Part shown: in pieces, positions 97-61,135 of the stretch
How positions within the stretch are numbered: position 1 is the stretch's first letter
How the letters are laid out: each line of letters opens with the position of its first letter
Source: Candidatus Fervidibacter sp.
GTDB taxonomy: Bacteria > Armatimonadota > Fervidibacteria > Fervidibacterales > Fervidibacteraceae
Assembly (NCBI GenBank): GCA_041446875.1
Contig: JBGOEW010000006.1
Location: 4,326-68,325 of the forward strand
Direction of reading: 5' to 3'
DNA: 64,000 bases
Program-made: the position numbers and the translations under genes
The notes under the pieces: model-generated
Told to the model about the DNA's origin: nothing
Database searches by the model: none
Seen by the model: only the letters and a program-made list of their open reading frames with translations

Positions 97-300
97 AAAC
101 GGCAGCGACTGGCGAATAGCGATTGGCGACCGGTCAAACGGCAGCGATGGGCGATTAGCGACTGGTAAACGGCAGCGAAGCGAATAGCAAACTGGCGAAT
201 TGTGGCTATTTAGCCACGACGGAAAAAACAGCCACGACGGAAAACGGAAGCAGCCACGACGAAAACAATCAGCCACGACGGAAAACCGAAGCGAATGGAG
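97..300. repeat. Composite intergenic repeat: heptamer blocks plus AGCCACGACG(G)AAAA tandem copies
   Basis: AAACGGCAGCGA at 97, 136 and 167. GTGGCTA-TT-TAGCCAC palindrome at 202-217. AGCCACGACG(G)AAAA at 212, 230, 252 and 271. Confidence 0.85.
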
Positions 301-307
301 TGAGCCA

Positions 308-1855
308 TCAAAGGGGCAAGGCAACGCCGTCGCCGCGAAGGTCGGCACAGCCGCACCAACTGTCGCCGACCCGCTCAATGCCGTGCGCCACGCCCGTCCC
401 ACCAGGGTAAGGGACGAGTTGCGGTTGCCAGCCGAGGGAGAACAACTCTGTCGGGTCAGCCAACCCTTGCTCCACGAGCAAAGTTCGCCCGCCCAGCCAA
501 AGGGCGCGGGGTGCTTCTATCGCCGCTTGCAACGACATCCCAAAATCCAGCCAACGGAGCAAAATCCATGCGTGAATGGTCGGGCGGAAATCGCCGCCAC
601 TGGTGCCTAAAAGCCCTTTCACTGCGCCCCGTTCGTCCAACACCAGCAACACCGAAAGGGTGTGGCGGGGTCGTTTACCGCCCATCAGTTCGTTGGGATG
701 TCCTTCCGTCAGCACGAAGTTGGCGCCGCGATTTTGAAAGAGCACGCCCGTTTGAGGCTCCAAAATGCCCGACCCGAAAGCGTGAAAGAGGCTTTGAATG
801 GCTGAGAGGGCGTTGCCGTCAGCGTCCACGATGACGAAGTTAGTCGTGTCGCCGTCCGAGGAAGCCAACCGAAGGGGCGGTTGCGAAAGGCGTTGGCGCA
901 AGCGCTCAAGGCGTTCGGGGCTCAAAAGCATTTCGGGCGGATGAGGCACAAAGTCTGGGTCGGCAAGGTAAGCGTCCCGCTCTTCGGCGACGAGGGTGGC
1001 GATGGCAGCGACATGGGCGACTAATTCCGCTGCTTTCCACCGATTGACAGGCAACGATTGCAGCAGCGCCATCGTTTGGAGCGTGGCGATGCCCAACGAA
1101 TTAGGTGGAAGTTCCAACAGCGTGACATTGCGGTAGCGCAGGGAAATTGGTGACACCCATTCGCCACGATGGCTGGCGAAATCGTTGGGCGTCATCGGGC
1201 TGCCCAAGCGTTGCAAATGAGTCGCCAACTTTTGTGCTGTCTCGCCCGCATAAAACCCGTCTCGCCCTTCGGCGGCGATGCGCTGAAGGGTTTGCGCCAA
1301 AGCGGGTTGGCAAAGGCGTTGCCCTGCGGTCAAGGGCTTGCCGTTGCGGAAGAAGACGGCGCGACAACCTTCATCGTGCGCCAATCGTTCGGCGTTGGTG
1401 GCGATGGCGTGGGCAAGTTTGGGTGAAACGACGAAACCTTCCTCGGCGACAGCGATAGCGAATTGCCAAAGCGATGCCCATCGGAGTCGTCCAAAGCGTT
1501 GATGGAGTTGCCAGAGGGCATCCACCAAGCCCGGGGCGGTGACCGAAAGAACGCTGTAGGTGGGCATCGTTCGCAAACCTCGTCGGCGCAAATCGGCGGC
1601 GGAAAGATTTTTGGGGGCGCGCCCACTGCCGTTGAAAGCGAGGGCGGTTTGCTCTTTCGCCAACCAAGCCAACCCAAAAAAGTCGCCACCCAACCCACAA
1701 AGGTGCGGGGTGACGACGGCGAGGGTGGCGCCGACGGCGACAGCGGCGTCGGCGAAGTTACCGCCTTGACGAAGAATTTGCCAACCTGCCAGCGTTGCGA
1801 GCGGATGTTCCGAAACAATCATCCCCTTGACAGACCAGGCGGGCATCTTGAGCAT
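308..1855 (-). CDS. ggt: Gamma-glutamyltransferase family protein
   Basis: N-terminal GGNFADAAVA...PHLCGLGGD, autoprocessing GDTTNF (Thr nucleophile), KRPRHTLS and GTSGG motifs. The start is placed at ATG 1855, just after the upstream stop; the ORF track starts at 1879. Confidence 0.92.
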   Translation of the reverse strand: MLKMPAWSVKGMIVSEHPLATLAGWQILRQGGNFADAAVAVGATLAVVTPHLCGLGGDFFGLAWLAKEQTALAFNGSGRAPKNLSAADLRRRGLRTMPTYSVLSVTAPGLVDALWQLHQRFGRLRWASLWQFAIAVAEEGFVVSPKLAHAIATNAERLAHDEGCRAVFFRNGKPLTAGQRLCQPALAQTLQRIAAEGRDGFYAGETAQKLATHLQRLGSPMTPNDFASHRGEWVSPISLRYRNVTLLELPPNSLGIATLQTMALLQSLPVNRWKAAELVAHVAAIATLVAEERDAYLADPDFVPHPPEMLLSPERLERLRQRLSQPPLRLASSDGDTTNFVIVDADGNALSAIQSLFHAFGSGILEPQTGVLFQNRGANFVLTEGHPNELMGGKRPRHTLSVLLVLDERGAVKGLLGTSGGDFRPTIHAWILLRWLDFGMSLQAAIEAPRALWLGGRTLLVEQGLADPTELFSLGWQPQLVPYPGGTGVAHGIERVGDSWCGCADLRGDGVALPL

Positions 1856-22276: not shown

Positions 22277-22684
22277 ATGAAGCGATTCATCGGTGTTGCG
22301 TTGGTCGTAGCCGTCGTGGTCGGTGGCGTGTTGGCGCAGGAACAAATCTTGAAGGGCATCGGGGCAATTGCCCTAACGAAAGCCCTCGCTAACGAGTTGA
22401 ACAAGGGCATCAACACCGTCATGGGGCGCAACGGCATCAAAGCCCAGTCCACCAAGGTCGTCCCCATCATCAGTGTCGGGGAAGGGCTTCGGGTCGGCGC
22501 CGCCCAAGTGATGGGTTCGCCTTCGCTCGTCAAGAAGGTAGAAGCCGTCGCCCAATTGGAAGCCAACTTGATGGGTTCGGCGCGGGCGAAAATTTTGGTG
22601 CCCGTCTCCGATGTCAATGTCACCCGAGGCATCAAGCAGGTCACGGGGGTCGGTGTCTCGGCGATCATTGACTTGAAGTTGTGA
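22277..22684 (+). CDS. Exported hypothetical protein
   Basis: GGAGGTGA RBS, signal peptide ending VLA-Q, and a compact beta-rich 135-aa ORF. Confidence 0.75.
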   Translation: MKRFIGVALVVAVVVGGVLAQEQILKGIGAIALTKALANELNKGINTVMGRNGIKAQSTKVVPIISVGEGLRVGAAQVMGSPSLVKKVEAVAQLEANLMGSARAKILVPVSDVNVTRGIKQVTGVGVSAIIDLKL

Positions 22685-22690
22685 GTCACC

Positions 22691-22734
22691 AAAACGGCAG
22701 CGAATAGTGAGTAGCGAATGGCGAGTGGCGAATG
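22691..22734 (+). repeat. Tandem heptamer array (GCGA(A/G)T(A/G)-type) led by AAAACGGCA
   Basis: GCGAATA-GTGAGTA-GCGAATG-GCGAGTG-GCGAATG at 22700-22734. Confidence 0.85.
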
Positions 22735-22740
22735 ATTTGG

Positions 22741-22767
22741 CGGGATGTTTTGGTCTAACACGATCAT
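22741..22767 (-). pseudogene. 9-codon relic of a PIN-like (DUF5615-type) toxin gene
   Basis: ATG overlaps the DUF433 stop (ATGA). Reads MIVLDQNIP, like the hhLDENhP PIN start, then runs into the heptamer array. Confidence 0.55.
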
Positions 22768-35094: not shown

Positions 35095-36042
35095 ATGGGG
35101 CGGGCTGGATGGCTGGTGTTGCTGATAGCGATGGTCTCGGTCGCCCCAGCGATGCAGGAAACGGAGAAAGAGCCACCTCAAACGCAACTTTTGCGTTTGG
35201 ACGGGAGCGTTCGGGGCATCATCATCGGGCTGAACCGAGCGACCTTAGCCATCCTCTCTGCCCAACAGGTCGTCACCTACCTGCACTTGCCCATTGACAA
35301 ACTTCCCAACTGGGTGCGGACGGGTGTGGCAGTCACTGTCCTCTATCGGGTCAACGAAAACGGCGAATTTTGGGCGGAGCAAATTTCTCCACCATCGCCG
35401 ACCGAGCCGCAAGAACCTTCCCCGACCACGCCCAAAATTGTCATCGTGCCCTTAGAATCGCTGATCAAGACCGAGCCGTCCCGACAAGGCTCCCTAATGG
35501 AGCAGCGACAGCGTTCCCTTCCCTCGCGGGGTCTGAACATTTTGCAGGCGCGGCTTCGCACGACCCTCAGCCCGATGGAAAGCGAAGTCCAACGGTTGCT
35601 GCCCCATTATCGGGCTGCCGTGAAATTTTTCAACGCCACCTTGACCGACGAGCAGGTTGATGCCATCGCCAGCACCATCATCCGCTGTGGCTTGCGATAC
35701 GGCATAGACCCGCGTTTGATTGTCGCCGTCATCGCTTGTGAGTCCAGTTTCCGTCCCAACGCCGTCGGCAAAAAGGGCGAAATTGGCTTGGGGCAACTCA
35801 AGCCTGAGACGGCAGCGGGGTTGGGCGTCAACCCTTACGACCCCATCCAGAACATTGATGGTTGCGCCCGCTACCTGCGGCAGCAGTTGGAGCGTTTCGG
35901 TGACCTCGCCTTAGCGCTGGCGGCTTACAACGCTGGTCCGAATGCCGTCCTCAAAGCGGGCGGCATCCCGCAAAATGGCATCACGCCCCGCTATGTGCAG
36001 AAGGTGCTGGACCTTTACCGCCGTCTCTGTGGTCAACCGTGA
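35095..36042 (+). CDS. Lytic transglycosylase (SLT domain)
   Basis: AVIACESSF, GEIGLGQL, NIDGCARYL and ALAAYNAG motifs. AGGAGG RBS before ATG 35095. Confidence 0.9.
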   Translation: MGRAGWLVLLIAMVSVAPAMQETEKEPPQTQLLRLDGSVRGIIIGLNRATLAILSAQQVVTYLHLPIDKLPNWVRTGVAVTVLYRVNENGEFWAEQISPPSPTEPQEPSPTTPKIVIVPLESLIKTEPSRQGSLMEQRQRSLPSRGLNILQARLRTTLSPMESEVQRLLPHYRAAVKFFNATLTDEQVDAIASTIIRCGLRYGIDPRLIVAVIACESSFRPNAVGKKGEIGLGQLKPETAAGLGVNPYDPIQNIDGCARYLRQQLERFGDLALALAAYNAGPNAVLKAGGIPQNGITPRYVQKVLDLYRRLCGQP

Positions 36043-36048
36043 ACGGGC

Positions 36049-36807
36049 GTGACGCTGATGGCAGGCGAGGAACGACAGGATGTTCAGCAACCTGCCTTCC
36101 CTGCCCCTTTCGTCTCCGTCATCATTCCCGCCCACAATGAAGCCGACCGCATCGCCCCAACAATCGCCGCTTTGAAGCGGGCGGCGGAGCGAAGTGGATG
36201 GGCTTGGGAACTGATTGTCGTGGACGACGCTTCCGATGATGACACCGCCACCGTCGCCGCTCAAGCGGGGGCGACCAAAGTTTTCCGCCTTTCTCGTCCC
36301 TCGTCCCTCGTCCCTCGTCCCTTCGGCAAGGGGGCTGCTTTGCGAAGGGGCATCGCCGAAGCGAAGGGTGACATCGTGCTCTTCGTGGACGCCGACATCG
36401 GCGACGATGCCGAAAAATTTTGGACGCTGGTGGAGTGGGTTCGGCGGGGCGATGCCGACATGGCGATCGCCGCCCCGCCCCCCGACCCGAAGGGCGGAGG
36501 TTTCGGAATTGTCAAGACTTTTGCGGCGTGGGCAATCCAAAGGGCAACGGGTTTTCAACCGCAAGCGCCTTTGTCGGGGCAACGAGCCTTGCGCCGAACT
36601 GTGTTGGAACGCCTCCCAATCGCTGACGGCTACGCGGTGGAGACGGCGTTGACGATAGATGCCTTGCGAGCCCATTTTCGGGTCGTGGAAGTGCCCATCC
36701 CTTTCGGGCATCGGGCGTTGGGGAAAAGTTGGCGGGGCTTTTTGCATCGGGCAAAACAACTTTGGGACATCGCCAAAGCCGTCCTGCCCCGATTGCTGTC
36801 CAAGTGA
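36049..36807 (+). CDS. Glycosyltransferase family 2
   Basis: VSVIIPAHNEA, VVDDASDD, GKGAAL, FVDADI, PLSGQRA and GYAVET motifs. Confidence 0.9.
   Translation: MTLMAGEERQDVQQPAFPAPFVSVIIPAHNEADRIAPTIAALKRAAERSGWAWELIVVDDASDDDTATVAAQAGATKVFRLSRPSSLVPRPFGKGAALRRGIAEAKGDIVLFVDADIGDDAEKFWTLVEWVRRGDADMAIAAPPPDPKGGGFGIVKTFAAWAIQRATGFQPQAPLSGQRALRRTVLERLPIADGYAVETALTIDALRAHFRVVEVPIPFGHRALGKSWRGFLHRAKQLWDIAKAVLPRLLSK
36293..36320 (+). repeat. 4x CTCGTCC heptamer inside the GT2 gene
   Basis: Exact tandem CTCGTCC x4, read in frame as SRPSSLVPRP. Confidence 0.9.
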
Positions 36808-36822
36808 AAGGGTGACCGCACC

Positions 36823-38379
36823 ATGACCTTAGAGCGCTTGCGCTTTGACCGAATGCCCGAACCGTTGGCGCAATTGGTGAAGGCAGCGGCAACCCTCGCC
36901 AACCAACACCGCTTGCGCCTTTACCTCGTCGGCGGCTGGCTACGGGATTTTGTAACGGCAGCGAGTGGCGAATGGCGAATGGCGAATAGCGACTACTCGC
37001 TACTCACTACTCGCTACTCGCCATTGGACATGGATTTCGCCATCTCCGCCGACCCGCTTCCTTTCGTGGAGCAGTTAGCGAAGCAAGTGGGAGGGCGGGT
37101 CGTTCGGCTGCACGATGACTTGCCGACGGTGCGATTAGCCCGATGGCTGGAAGACAACCCCGATGCTGTCGCCGATTTCACGGCGCTTCAAGGCGACTTG
37201 GAGAGCGATTTGCGCCGACGGGATTTCACCTGCAATGCCCTCGCCGTTGACGCCGTTGAACTAACGCAGCGTGGCGAAGCCCCCATCTTTGACCCGCTGG
37301 GCGGGTTGCAGCACATCATCCAGAGGTTGCTTGTGCTGACGCACAAACGAGCGCTGCAAAATGACCCCGTTCGCATCCTGCGCGCCTTCCGCTTCGCCGC
37401 CACTTTGGGTTTTGCTATCGCCCCCGAGACAAAAGTTGCCCTCGCCGAAGCGGCGCCCTTGCTGCTCAACGCTGCGCCCGAACGATTAACGATGGAACTG
37501 GCGTGGACTTTGCAAACGCCTCAAGCCGCCGAGATGCTCGCCTTGATGGACGAAGTTAGCGTGCTGACTTTTTTGCTGCCCGAATTGATGCCGCTAAAAG
37601 AAGTGCCTGCCGCTGGCTACCACCACTTGGATGGCTTTTGCCACACGCTGGAAGCCGTTCGGCAAATAGAGCGCGTGCTGCGGGCGGAGACGGAAGACGA
37701 CGAGTTCAACGCACTCCTTTCGCAGGTGCGGGACACTTTCAATGAGCGCTTCGGTTATCGGCGCACGGGTGTTTGGGTCGTCAAGTTTGCGACGCTCTTG
37801 CATGACATCGGCAAACCCGAAACGATGACGGTCGGCGACGACGGTTCAGTGCATTTTTATGGGCATGAAAAAGTGGGGGCTGAAAAGGCGGGAGGGATTT
37901 GCCAACGGTTGCGTTTGTCTCGGCGGGAGAAAGGCATCGTCGTCAGTTTGGTGCGCTACCACATGCGTCCCGTCTCGTTGGCAGGCGCCCACCGATTGAC
38001 GGAGCGCGCCCTACGGCGCTTTTGGCGTGACCTCGGCGATTTGGCGGGCATCTACTGCGTGGCGTTGTCGGCAGCCGATTTGATGGCGACGCGTGGGGCG
38101 GCGATGACCGACGAACATCGCCGACGCCACTATTTCGTCCTGCGCCGCTTGTTGGAGACGCACTTCGCCCTGCAAGAGATGCGACAACGACCTCGGTTGG
38201 TGACAGGACACGAAATCATGGAACGCTATGGCATCGGACCTTCGCCCCTCGTCGGTCAAGCCTTGCGCTTGGTGGAAGAAGCCATCTTGGATGGGCGGGT
38301 GCAAACGAAAGACGAGGCGTGGCGATTGCTGGACGAAGCGATGGCGCAAGGGCTTGAAAAGGCAAGCCAAAAACCTTAA
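36823..38379 (+). CDS. Class II tRNA nucleotidyltransferase (CCA-adding/poly(A) polymerase family) with HD domain
   Basis: YLVGGWLRD...DMDF, DLRRRDFTCNA, DPLGG, DPVRILRAFRFA and LLHDIGKP (HD) motifs. Confidence 0.92.
   Translation: MTLERLRFDRMPEPLAQLVKAAATLANQHRLRLYLVGGWLRDFVTAASGEWRMANSDYSLLTTRYSPLDMDFAISADPLPFVEQLAKQVGGRVVRLHDDLPTVRLARWLEDNPDAVADFTALQGDLESDLRRRDFTCNALAVDAVELTQRGEAPIFDPLGGLQHIIQRLLVLTHKRALQNDPVRILRAFRFAATLGFAIAPETKVALAEAAPLLLNAAPERLTMELAWTLQTPQAAEMLALMDEVSVLTFLLPELMPLKEVPAAGYHHLDGFCHTLEAVRQIERVLRAETEDDEFNALLSQVRDTFNERFGYRRTGVWVVKFATLLHDIGKPETMTVGDDGSVHFYGHEKVGAEKAGGICQRLRLSRREKGIVVSLVRYHMRPVSLAGAHRLTERALRRFWRDLGDLAGIYCVALSAADLMATRGAAMTDEHRRRHYFVLRRLLETHFALQEMRQRPRLVTGHEIMERYGIGPSPLVGQALRLVEEAILDGRVQTKDEAWRLLDEAMAQGLEKASQKP
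36954..37026. repeat. Inverted pair of heptamer arrays (hairpin) inside the nucleotidyltransferase gene
   Basis: AACGGCA then GCGAGTG-GCGAATG-GCGAATG-GCGAATA-GCGA, followed by TACTCGC-TACTCAC-TACTCGC-TACTCGC (reverse-complement units). Confidence 0.9.
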
Positions 38380-38382
38380 TGC

Positions 38383-39663
38383 TCAATCCATCGTCAACTC
38401 CAACCCGTTGACGATGATGCGATCGCCTGCTTTCGCTCCCGCTTTTCGGAGGGCTTTCCAGATGCCGTGCCGAAGGAGGCGCTCTTTGATTTCCGCCAAG
38501 GCTTGCGGGTGCGACGCATTGATGAGCCGTGTGAGCCGTTCCACTTCGCCCCCTTGCACGAGCCAAGTCTCTTCGTCCAAGCGCTCAATTGTCAAGGGCG
38601 CTTCGGTTCGCTTAGGTGGGGCGACGATGACTTCCTCGGACGCTTCGGGCAAAGGTGCCGTCGGCTGCATCGCTTTCACCAACTCTGCCATCCGATAGAC
38701 GAGGGGCTCAATCCCTTCACCTGTCAAGGCGGAGATGGCGAACACTTCATAACCTCGCTGACGCCAATAGGGCAAGCAGCGCCGCAAGTTTTCGGGGGCA
38801 TTGGGCAAGTCCATTTTGTTGGCGACGACAACTTGGGGCTTTTTCGCCAGTTCGGGGCTGTAAAGGCGCAACTCTTCGTTGATGGTCTCAAAGTCGCAGA
38901 TAGGGTCGCGCCCTTCTACGGCAGCGATGTCCACCATGTGCAAAAGGAGCAAAGTCCGCTCGGCATGGCGCAAAAACTGATGCCCCAAACCGACGCCTTT
39001 ATGGGCGCCCTCAATCAAGCCGGGCAAATCCGCCACGACAAAACTGAAGTTGTCCACCCGCACCGTTCCCAGGTTGGGCACGAGGGTCGTGAAAGGGTAG
39101 TCGGCGATTTTGGGGCGGGCAGCACTGATGCGGCTGATGAGGGTGGACTTGCCGACATTGGGGTAACCGATGATGCCCACATCAGCCAGCAACTTCAACT
39201 CCAACCGCAAAGTCCGTTCCTCGCCCGGTTCGCCCAACTCGGCAAAAACAGGCGTTTGGCGGGTAGGGGTGGCAAAGGCAGCGTTGCCCCGACCGCCCCG
39301 ACCGCCGCGCGCCACGACGACCCTTTGCCCCGGCTTGACCAAATCAGCGAGCAACTCGCCTGTTTCAGCATCGTAAATGACCGTCCCGACGGGCACGCGG
39401 ATGACCAAATCTTTGCCATCCGCCCCGTGCTTGTTGCTGCCTTGTCCGTGTTGACCATTCTCGGCTTTATAGGTTCGCTGCAGGTGCAAGTCCACAAGGG
39501 TTTTCACCGACGGGTCAGCGAGCAAGATGACATGCCCGCCCCGACCACCATCGCCCCCCGCAGGACCGCCACGCGGGACGAATTTCTCCCGCCGAAAAGC
39601 GACACACCCATTGCCTCCATTCCCTGCCTTGACATGAATGACTGCCTCGTCCACAAAGTGCAT
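38383..39663 (-). CDS. obgE: GTPase Obg
   Basis: AGNGGNG...[36 protein letters not shown] and C-terminal DUF1967 (GAKAGD). GAGGTGA RBS before ATG 39663. Confidence 0.97.
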
Positions 39664-39727
39664 CGCCAAGTCACCTCAAAAAGTGCAACAGAAAGATGCG
39701 GGCAAATGATGCGAAGGGTTGGCAAGG

Positions 39728-40129
39728 TCACCGCTGCAGCGTCAGGGAGTTGTCCGAGAAGTTGAAGGTGACCACCGAGAAGCGGTGCAAGTAACTCAAC
39801 CCAACCAAGCCATCCAACCCCACTTGGGGCGGAAGGCTTAGCGCCAAGCAATCCACATTTGCTTCTTCCGCCCCGATGACTCCGAACCGTTCCAGCGTCA
39901 CCTGCGGGGCGGTGAGGGCTTGGGCGTGGATGCCGTAAATCGTCATCGGGCGCGCTACCGTCAGGTCGTAGCCCAGACCAACCAAAATGTCTGGCTTGAT
40001 CATCACCAGCGAGGCGCCGCTGTCCACAGCCATGCGTAAGACGATGTATCGGCTGCCCCGCCAGAGGACACATTGGACGACCAACAATGGCGCCGTCGCT
40101 AAAAAGGGCACTCGCACTATTGGGCGCAT
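39728..40129 (-). CDS. Retropepsin-like (clan AA) aspartic protease, single domain
   Basis: MAVDSGAS catalytic motif and C-terminal GLVGLSYL motif. Confidence 0.8.
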   Translation of the reverse strand: MRPIVRVPFLATAPLLVVQCVLWRGSRYIVLRMAVDSGASLVMIKPDILVGLGYDLTVARPMTIYGIHAQALTAPQVTLERFGVIGAEEANVDCLALSLPPQVGLDGLVGLSYLHRFSVVTFNFSDNSLTLQR

Positions 40130-50341: not shown

Positions 50342-50952
50342 TATCCCGACCCCTCACCGCCGTAGATGACATACTCGCCCCGCTCAATCTCCGCTAACGC
50401 CTCTTCATGCTCCCTGATCAACTCCGAGTCGGTGGCGAGTAAGTGGTCTTCGTAGTCCGCTAACGCCTCATCCATCAAACCCCAAAGAAAATCCCGCTCC
50501 GCCTCCCGCATCCCCTTGACAGCAGCGATCAACGCCTCCACCAAACCCTCGCCACCTTCCACTTGCACCCGACATCGCCCCGACCTTTCCCGCCTCACTT
50601 CTATCGCCACCAGCAAAACTCGCCCTCCCCATTCCATCGGCATCAAGAACTTCCATCCCACAACTTGCCCCTTGCCCCTTGCCCCCCGTCCCTCCTTTCC
50701 CCGCTTTCCTTCCCATCGCACCCACGCCTCTCCCGAAACCGCAACTTTCACCACAACCTCGCCTGCCTCGCCTTCTCCGTCTTCCTGCCCCTCAAAGAAG
50801 CGACGCAAATCAGGGTGGAAGGCGGAAAAGAAGCGATAGCGCAGTTTGGACGGCAAAAGCCACAAGATGGCTGCCAACCATCCGATGCGTTGCCGCTCCT
50901 CTTCCGTCAACCCTTCCTCTTTCACCTTCGCTGTCAGGCTCATCGCTTTCAC
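50341..50952 (-). CDS. Putative antitoxin, unusually long (203 aa)
   Basis: Directly upstream of and abutting relE. The acidic C-terminus LADYEDHLLA...ALAEIERGEYV is antitoxin-like, and there is an internal purine-rich low-complexity tract. Confidence 0.55.
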   Translation of the reverse strand: MKAMSLTAKVKEEGLTEEERQRIGWLAAILWLLPSKLRYRFFSAFHPDLRRFFEGQEDGEGEAGEVVVKVAVSGEAWVRWEGKRGKEGRGARGKGQVVGWKFLMPMEWGGRVLLVAIEVRRERSGRCRVQVEGGEGLVEALIAAVKGMREAERDFLWGLMDEALADYEDHLLATDSELIREHEEALAEIERGEYVIYGGEGSG

Positions 50953-51107: not shown

Positions 51108-51170
51108 CCTTTGCCTTTCGCCGTTCGCTAACTCACTATTCGCTACTGGCTATTCGCCACTCGCTGTCTT
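51108..51170 (-). repeat. Heptamer array downstream of yraN
   Basis: Minus strand GCGAGTG-GCGAATA-GCCAGTA-GCGAATA-GTGAGTT(A)-GCGAACG-GCGAAAG. Confidence 0.85.
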
Positions 51171-51612: not shown

Positions 51613-51650
51613 GCGACTGGCGATTGGCGACAGGCGAACGGCTAAGCGAG
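51613..51650 (+). repeat. Heptamer array upstream of yraN and the FG-GAP gene
   Basis: GCGACTG-GCGATTG-GCGACAG-GCGAACG. Confidence 0.8.
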
Positions 51651-60802: not shown

Positions 60803-61135
60803 CCGACGCCCCCATTCAACCTCCTGCCCAGCGGCGAAGAAAGCAGCCCTTCGGAGGGCGGGTTGTCACTTTGATACCCACTTTCACACGGACCACCGAG
60901 TCAAAATGACGACGGAAAGGAAATGCCCTTTGACTTTCTTTGCCTATGTTGCGTCGCCGTCAGTTCCGCCACCAAAGGCGAAAGTTCAGCGTCAGACCAA
61001 AAAGGCGTTGAGGTGCGCCTCAACATACACTAAGGTGTGTCCGCAAGGCAATGGCTATCACTTCCAGAAGCCTTTCAGCCAGAAAGATGAGGTAGGGGCG
61101 AGGCATCAGAGGGGTAAGGCAAGAGAGGGGCAAGG

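Follow-up and report, generated by a model that had tools for sequence, protein, structure and literature searches.

A heptamer-array hairpin read in frame within motif A of a probable CC-adding tRNA nucleotidyltransferase of Candidatus Fervidibacter

In this study, we analyzed a stretch of 64,000 nucleotides from the hot-spring bacterium Candidatus Fervidibacter sp. (Armatimonadota; GenBank assembly GCA_041446875.1, contig JBGOEW010000006.1, positions 4,326 to 68,325 of the forward strand), hereafter the window, in which the gene for a class II tRNA nucleotidyltransferase carries an in-frame palindrome of tandem heptamers. The palindrome belongs to a family of dispersed repeats with the unit GCGANTR, is confined to one small clade among the homologues compared, and occurs there in several in-frame alleles. 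The remainder of the gene bears the signature of purifying selection, and the predicted structure is confident outside the insert. Based on these observations, the insert is probably a tolerated, translated passenger, that is, a hairpin-type copy of a heptamer array in the helix-to-strand connector of motif A of a working CC-adding enzyme. The features of this gene, in coordinates of the window, are as follows.

36823..38379 (+), 518-aa class II tRNA nucleotidyltransferase that includes an HD domain, of the CC-adding type most likely, host of the insert (Pfam, phmmer, and Foldseek)
36955..37023 (+), translated insert, residues 45-67 (TAASGEWRMANSDYSLLTTRYSP), 18 residues beyond the native loop (alignment with 17 orthologues of the genus and family)
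37027..37035 (+), catalytic DMD (D69, D71), where strand beta-2 begins (alignment; strand 69-74 of the model)
Predicted tryptic peptides covering the insert: MANSDYSLLTTR and the next one, which starts YSPLDMDF

The insert opens with the leader AACGGCA at 36954-36960. Its left arm (36961-36995) consists of the five GCGANTR heptamers GCGAGTG, GCGAATG, GCGAATG, GCGAATA, and GCGACTA, the fifth of which forms the turn of the hairpin. The right arm (36996-37023) consists of CTCGCTA, CTCACTA, CTCGCTA, and CTCGCCA, the reverse complement of GCGAGTA-type units. Both arms were also recovered by Tandem Repeats Finder in the window, as 4.6 copies of GCGAATG and 4.1 copies of CTACTCG. An earlier note on this DNA had described an in-frame heptamer hairpin at 36954-37026; it is present as claimed, with a leader and five heptamers facing four. 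Since the two variable positions of the unit are not the same in both arms, every heptamer of the stem includes a single mismatch and a single G-U pair. In the open reading frame (ORF), GGWLRD is followed by 26 residues that include ASGEWRMANSDYSLLTTRYSP and then by DMD, which bears out the 26-residue separation given in that note. The remaining two frames across the insert, read directly from the sequence, hit stop codons. Translational bypass of the insert was rejected: GAT TTY is the only take-off and landing pair that matches, its use would remove the DxD, and the frame stays open in every allele.

The length of this connector is otherwise nearly constant. Across 152 homologues drawn from many phyla, 138 separate RD from DxD by exactly 8 residues, in agreement with the expectation of about 6-8 residues for class II enzymes. 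A connector of 16-26 residues is confined to a close Fervidibacter clade, and the other homologues that depart from 8 have 7-9 residues. Within the genus, 12 or 13 of 13 orthologues with the short form have an 8-residue connector (the register of the DxD is ambiguous in G010), nearly all with the sequence FLLGRESW, and more distant Armatimonadota orthologues have 8 residues as well. Long loops of a similar kind in distant orthologues would have spoken against an insertion; none was found among these homologues, and the long connector thus appears to be lineage-specific. A wider protein search gave four clusters and no further allele forms.

The alignment with orthologues, which the earlier note had proposed for setting the boundaries of the insert, also indicates how the insert relates to the native loop. 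No remnant of the native LGRESW codons is present at the insert, and the flanks TTTGTA and TTGGAC are codons of the native frame. Additionally, no target-site duplication was found at the insert borders. The element thus replaced the native loop and did not split it. The identity of a miniature inverted-repeat transposable element was rejected on the same two grounds, the missing duplication and the missing native loop.

Four forms of the insert were found in sister genomes, of which G000 is the genome that carries the window. Their lengths are given relative to the native loop.

G000 allele: +54 nt, purine-type units GCGA[A/G]TR in both arms
G017 and G014 allele: +45 nt, pyrimidine-type, four GCGACTG units facing GCGATTR-type units, without leader
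G012 allele: +24 nt, a degenerate leader and outermost half-units around the core GGGCACGG, no significant structure
G008 allele (67% identity): +27 nt, resembling a degenerate four-unit array of the GGGRCAN family

GGGRCAN is a second heptamer family (CTTGCCC on the opposite strand) that contains a GGG run; 20 of the 31 related genomes have it, and the G008 insert at the CC-adding gene is probably explained by it. In all four forms the added length is a multiple of three and, with the frames read directly, is open solely in the frame of the gene. An independent metagenome contig (L118, 97% protein identity) has an insert identical to that of G000. Similarly, the G017 form recurs unchanged in six independent metagenome contigs and the G014 and G012 forms in one each; the insert is not hypervariable within species. 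An artefact of assembly or binning would be suggested by the 114 contigs of this assembly and by the ease with which repeats misassemble. However, L118 has the same insert, and related in-frame alleles lie in at least eight further contigs from different assemblies, with the frame intact; since the inserts are shared by independent contigs, this explanation has next to no probability.

The alleles also bear on the idea that the inserted peptide has been recruited for a function, such as that of an added head-domain loop with a regulatory role or with contacts to tRNA. The insert is kept in frame in at least four species-level lineages, and in the model the loop adjoins the active site. However, the peptide is wholly different among alleles (GEWRMANSDYSLLTTRYS, GDWRLATGIQSLIANRQS, and SGEGHGDAS), it is modeled as disordered, and its residues are just what the heptamers encode in any frame. 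We therefore regard recruitment of the peptide as improbable.

Recombination has made this locus a mosaic among G000, G012, G014, and G017, so that ancestral states are unreadable from one tree; a single species tree for the order of insert events was rejected for this reason. Across positions 35322-39800 of the window and loci L002-L004, the closest pairing among the four genomes switches along the locus. In particular, at 35322-35900, G000 is near G017 and G014 is near G012 (5% versus 27-30% divergence). These switches in the aligned sequences indicate frequent homologous recombination between the four Fervidibacter species.

The host protein matches the Pfam domains PolyA_pol, PolyA_pol_RNAbd, HD, and tRNA_NucTran2_2. 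Its head domain (PF01743, E = 4.5e-11) carries GGWLRD at 37-42 and DMD at 69-71, with an abnormal spacing of 26 versus 8 residues, motif B (RRRDFTCNA) at 131-139, and motif D (NDPVRILRAFRF) at 180-191, whose first residue is N instead of E. In an alignment of 45 sequences, G37, G38, R41, D71, R133, D134, D181, R184, and R187 are invariant, and D69 is conserved in at least 90%. Among solved structures, phmmer matched 3WFO with E = 6.2e-56 and the Bacillus CCA enzyme with 5e-22, and ranks 1-17 of Foldseek were all 3WFO-3WFS, with a target-normalised template modeling (TM) score of 0.81. By title and release date, we take 3WFO-3WFS to be the CC-adding enzyme of Aquifex aeolicus. The paper on that enzyme (PMC3925840) gives no PDB codes.

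In the host protein, the third carboxylate (D118) lies about 13 residues from the RRD of motif B (132), versus about 28 in a paralogue, as read from the translations. According to Neuenfeldt 2008 (cited in PMC3925840), CC-adding enzymes are distinguished by a short flexible loop in the head domain. The paralogue (424 aa, L184:686-1957, minus strand) has a canonical connector of 8 residues, and its best match is the NCBIfam A-adding model, at 230 bits, which is below the cut-off of that model. The A. aeolicus enzyme (AaS; PMC3925840) resembles the insert-bearing protein as its best sequence and fold match, in the short loop before motif B, in the HD-containing C-terminal half, and in the company of an A-adding paralogue; it differs in its canonical short connector between helix and DxD, where the insert-bearing protein is 18 residues longer. 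The nearest structures, the short loop before motif B, and the A-adding-like paralogue in the same genome make it most likely that the gene supplies CC addition within a split CC-adding/A-adding pair. The designation as a CCA-type nucleotidyltransferase thus stood as far as class II is concerned, and a full CCA enzyme became the less likely reading.

Outside the insert, the ratio of nonsynonymous to synonymous substitution rates (dN/dS) is 0.11-0.26 among the insert-bearing species, which points to purifying selection on the rest of the gene. The AlphaFold2 model built from the 45-sequence alignment has a mean predicted local distance difference test (pLDDT) score of 90.1, and the score falls below 50 solely at residues 51-65, which sit between helix 38-47 and strand 69-74. 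The modeled loop would face the surface. Collectively, these results are consistent with an insert that is translated and tolerated and with an enzyme that would be active in its presence.

Several observations weigh against a merely tolerated passenger, and they concern both the RNA and the active site. Over the alleles that form it, the hairpin reaches -39 to -49 kcal/mol at 37°C and -12 to -19 kcal/mol at 75°C, and so stable a stem could influence translation or serve as a target of a double-strand RNase. The hairpin of G017 and G014 keeps the design of four units per arm seen in G000 despite different heptamers, and G014 and G017 differ at six bases, all of which lie in the loop, at mismatched or unpaired positions, or where a wobble pair is preserved. 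This conserved design may mean that the stem is under selection, although the evidence is weak and mixed. Moreover, the insert lies two residues ahead of the catalytic DxD and disrupts the x9-13 spacing typical of the Pol-beta signature, which may reduce activity, and G014 has E instead of D as the first carboxylate.

The first group of points leads to a role at the RNA level, in which the stem would slow ribosomes or be cut by RNase III, as the stems of 23S rRNA intervening sequences (IVS) are, and would set how strongly the CC-adding enzyme is expressed, the peptide being a by-product. For the 101-nt stretch around the hairpin, the RNA fold has -41.9 kcal/mol (z = -6.5), none of 200 shuffles was as stable, and -11.6 kcal/mol remains at 75°C. 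Furthermore, the same arrays bracket genes of PF05635, a family encoded in rRNA intervening sequences that are excised by RNase III (PMC4990558). However, the G012 and G008 alleles have z of about 0 and no significant RNA structure, and the gene is still conserved there. The arms of this copy also match each other no better than swapped arms: of 10 foreign arms paired with its left arm, 9 pair no worse than the native right arm, which gives no support for a tuned stem, and the means over family copies are -1.36 kcal/mol per nt for native and -1.23 for swapped pairs. In addition, an insert of any kind is present in less than half of the orthologues. With these points on both sides, we consider a regulatory stem unlikely.

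Two related accounts of the hairpin were rejected. In the Rfam scan, no family reaches its gathering score; the sole match, mir-197, at 26 bits versus a gathering score of 74, reflects a generic hairpin. An intrinsic terminator does not fit, since the right arm is followed by neither an inverted leader nor a downstream T-run, and the in-gene copy thus has no terminator-like tail.

The second group of points leads to an enzyme with crippled catalysis, in which the protein would be kept for the phosphohydrolase or repair activity of the HD domain or as a pseudoenzyme. The broken spacing of the catalytic signature would fit this account, as would the first carboxylate, which is Glu in G014 (L002, EMD), G008 (L005, EAD), and G018 (L018, ECD). 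The need for de novo CC addition would also be smaller, given that about 36 of the 44 tRNA genes of G000 found by ARAGORN encode the 3' CCA, even with a probable split CC-adding/A-adding pair in that genome. However, the head-domain residues listed above are invariant and dN/dS is low. An ExD active site is known from the class I archaeal enzyme, with Glu59 and Asp61 (PMC3925840), and G018 has ExD without an insert; therefore, the Glu is not read as a loss of function. Finally, about 8 tRNA genes (Pro-TGG, Ser-TGA, Arg-CCG, Arg-CCT, Leu-TAA, SeC, and two atypically long calls) lack an encoded CCA, so that CC addition is probably still needed in this genome. A crippled enzyme is accordingly an improbable account, and the tolerated passenger in a working CC-adding enzyme is the reading that we retain.

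The GCGANTR arrays of the whole genome were counted. G000 contains 212 arrays of at least three units, versus 0-14 for four control patterns. The sizes from 3 to 8 units number 72, 107, 22, 8, 1, and 2, respectively, with four units the commonest (107/212). Directly upstream of the 140 arrays of at least four units, the consensus is AACGGCA, with 62-79% agreement per position. Of 181 clusters, 114 (63%) are intergenic, while non-coding sequence makes up about 11% of the genome; this census rests on a crude codon-usage gene caller with 89% coding, and arrays called inside genes near 5' ends probably lie in over-extended ORFs. Only 11 of the 181 clusters are palindromic, with a forward array followed by an inverted one, namely the in-gene copy and 10 others, and most clusters are single direct arrays. 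Several of the intergenic hairpins close with the inverted leader TGCCGTTTT and are terminator-like. The four-unit pattern has 135 matches in G017, 61 in G013, 46 in G000, 6 in G014, and 5 in G011, and none in the remaining related genomes searched, so that the family is patchy in the genus.

In the window, the exact 11-mer AACGGCAGCGA of the in-gene copy recurs at 98, 137, 168, and 22693, in line with the like-led units that had been noted at 97-178 and 22691. With one mismatch allowed, it has 10 matches in the window versus 2.2 expected. The other members of the family in the window are as follows.

98..200 (+), three tandem modules of leader and array, intergenic (11-mer match)
22693..22734 (+), leader and five-unit array, after a stop codon (11-mer match)
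51124..51165 (-), GCGANTR-family array (Tandem Repeats Finder and pattern scan)
51613..51640 (+), four-unit GCGANTR-family array with pyrimidine (Y) units (Tandem Repeats Finder)

At 22684-22767, the array of 22700-22734 adjoins a DUF433-type gene whose partner ORF is seemingly truncated, which fits arrays that overwrite sequence.

Copies in frame within unrelated genes were also found. In G000, a leader and four GCGANTR units lie antisense in a class III aminotransferase domain (C78:218-1459, L189, residues 333-343). This protein has the same length as its 11 orthologues, the native LASKFPQIVE is replaced by LATRHSPLAA, and G012 has an intermediate form; on this alignment, the array is suggested to have arisen by conversion and not by insertion. 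More arrays lie within putative gene models, based on crude gene calls, that match TamB, SMC-hinge, and FlgA. The dispersed family thus has in-frame copies in the aminotransferase and in putative TamB-like, SMC, and FlgA-like ORFs. One of these putative gene models, a 2102-aa ORF with a C-terminal TamB domain (C27:8146-14451, L185), contains three antisense elements of leader and four units, at about residues 850, 985, and 1646, all of which are read through.

With regard to origin, matches to the Y1 transposase PF01797 (Y1_Tnp) and to the reverse transcriptase PF00078 (RVT_1) were searched in G000, G013, G014, and G017, and none was found for either family (G000 is 92% complete). An origin from repetitive extragenic palindromic (REP) sequences and their associated tyrosine transposases (RAYT) was rejected because no Y1 transposase was found in these repeat-rich genomes. 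The likeness to REP/RAYT lies in short, abundant, mostly extragenic repeats, some of them palindromic; the tandem heptamer build is unlike REPs. Similarly, templated replacement by a reverse transcriptase or in the manner of a diversity-generating retroelement (DGR), with Avd/PF05635 and a reverse transcriptase, was rejected for lack of RVT_1 matches. The earlier note had proposed that a mobile or self-expanding element landed in the active-site loop. The element is indeed a member of a dispersed family, lineage-specific, and situated in motif A, whereas the landing itself is called into question by the absent target duplication, the absence of Y1 and reverse transcriptase matches, and the replaced loop. 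It is further doubted because G008 has at the same site a different insert that resembles an array of another heptamer family and because the aminotransferase codons appear overwritten without a change in length.

For the tolerated passenger, the following course may be proposed. A gene-less hairpin copy, with the leader AACGGCA and (GCGANTR)n facing an inverted array, would have taken the place of the 8 native residues that connect helix alpha-A (GGxxRD) to the catalytic strand (DxD), in the ancestor of a small Fervidibacter clade. The insert would be transcribed and translated with the gene as a disordered loop, while the fold and the catalytic residues stay in place, and it would persist as a neutral or mildly costly passenger. 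Turnover at the site might proceed by slippage or by ectopic recombination with other arrays, and selection would pass just those variants that are free of stops and have a length that is a multiple of three.

A further link leads to cassettes around PF05635, the family of 23S rRNA IVS proteins. G000 has three such genes. Inverted arrays bracket every one of them, with a unit that differs from gene to gene.

C23:652-963, PF05635 gene with GCGANTR arrays at 590-618 (+) and 1023-1058 (-), AACGACA leader
C9:38830-39330, cassette of a PF05635 gene bracketed by arrays of the octamer TCGGNNNN
C48:18560-19150, cassette of a PF05635 gene bracketed by GGGRCAN arrays

Across 11 genomes, inverted arms of period 7 or 8 that score at least 31 were found at 10 of 11 testable PF05635 loci, versus 1 of 300 control small genes, whose median arm score is 18. 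In the orthologous cassette of G013 (L220, C31:36750-37450), there are four units on each side and both arms are of the pyrimidine type GCGACTG, while the arms of the G000 C23 cassette are of the purine type (GCGAGTA/GCGAATG). Both arms thus change type together between species, which is the same switch as between the alleles of the CC-adding insert. Because GCGANTR arrays bracket a PF05635 gene in the same genome, and because of the 10/11 versus 1/300 association, it is plausible that the in-gene hairpin is a gene-less relative of the PF05635 cassettes. PF05635 gene counts do not track GCGANTR array counts across genomes, and the units vary from cassette to cassette. A more far-reaching proposal is that the heptamer hairpins are gene-less derivatives of PF05635 (IVS-protein or Avd-like four-helix bundle) that spread and overwrite codons by a so far undescribed route, without a transposase or reverse transcriptase, and form RNase III-type stems that set the mRNA level of their hosts; we regard this as possible but doubtful. 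At L221 (G017:C82:4150-4950), a divergent PF05635-like gene is accompanied by long ATGACCA/ATGAGCGA-type arrays in direct, not inverted, orientation.

Compared with known systems, the cassettes resemble the 23S rRNA IVS of Coxiella burnetii with its S23p/PF05635 ORF (PMC4990558), in which a four-helix-bundle gene lies between inverted repeats and a long stem is possible. In contrast, the cassettes here, known from sequence, lie between protein genes and not in rRNA, and the copy in the CC-adding gene is without its own ORF. Rickettsia palindromic elements (RPE) are described as in-frame dispersed palindromes of about 100-150 bp, non-tandem and in ten families (Ogata et al. 2000, via PMC10969869). 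The analogy to RPE drawn in the earlier note holds for behavior: both are dispersed palindromic repeats in frame in unrelated housekeeping genes, tolerated as an extra peptide that the fold accommodates. It fails for size, structure, and homology, as the element here has 54-63 nt of tandem heptamers behind a 7-nt leader, the family is mostly intergenic with the palindromic minority given above, the two are unrelated in sequence, and the element took the place of the native loop instead of splitting it. In addition, the RPE peptide is conserved, whereas the peptide here varies between alleles.

Cyanobacterial short tandemly repeated repetitive (STRR) heptamers have a 7-nt unit, are dispersed, are enriched in non-coding sequence near gene ends, and favor four units. 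Heptameric arrays are also known from Xanthomonas (GGGAATC) and Nostoc (GGGGAYT) (Rehm et al. 2015, PMC4692102). With all of these, the GCGANTR family shares the 7-nt unit, the genome-wide spread, the non-coding enrichment near gene ends, and the preference for four units. It differs from the Xanthomonas and Nostoc arrays in the lack of a GGG run, the conserved leader, the in-frame copy in a catalytic motif, and the bracketing of PF05635 genes. As GCGANTR has no G-tracts, the G-quadruplex account of four units does not apply. By structure or sequence, the element belongs neither to RPE nor to the Xanthomonas and Nostoc heptamer arrays.

The spacing from the GG turn to DxD is among the most constant features of Pol-beta-type nucleotidyltransferases. 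A hyperthermophile enzyme under apparent purifying selection with 18 extra connector residues would show how much this connector tolerates, and three natural allelic versions are on hand for testing it. Moreover, four-unit heptamer arrays, an unexplained class of bacterial repeats, are here tied to PF05635 cassettes in a genus with a cultivated member, Fervidibacter sacchari, which grows at 65-87.5°C (PMC11535203), and the origin and spread of such repeats could become experimentally testable in this genus.

Two further observations concern the arrays themselves. The GGGRCAN family is also present in the window, with arrays at 50664-50693 and 61094-61135. At G017:C8:36935-37246, paired heptamer arrays recur with a period of 123 bp and form a higher-order tandem repeat of modules.

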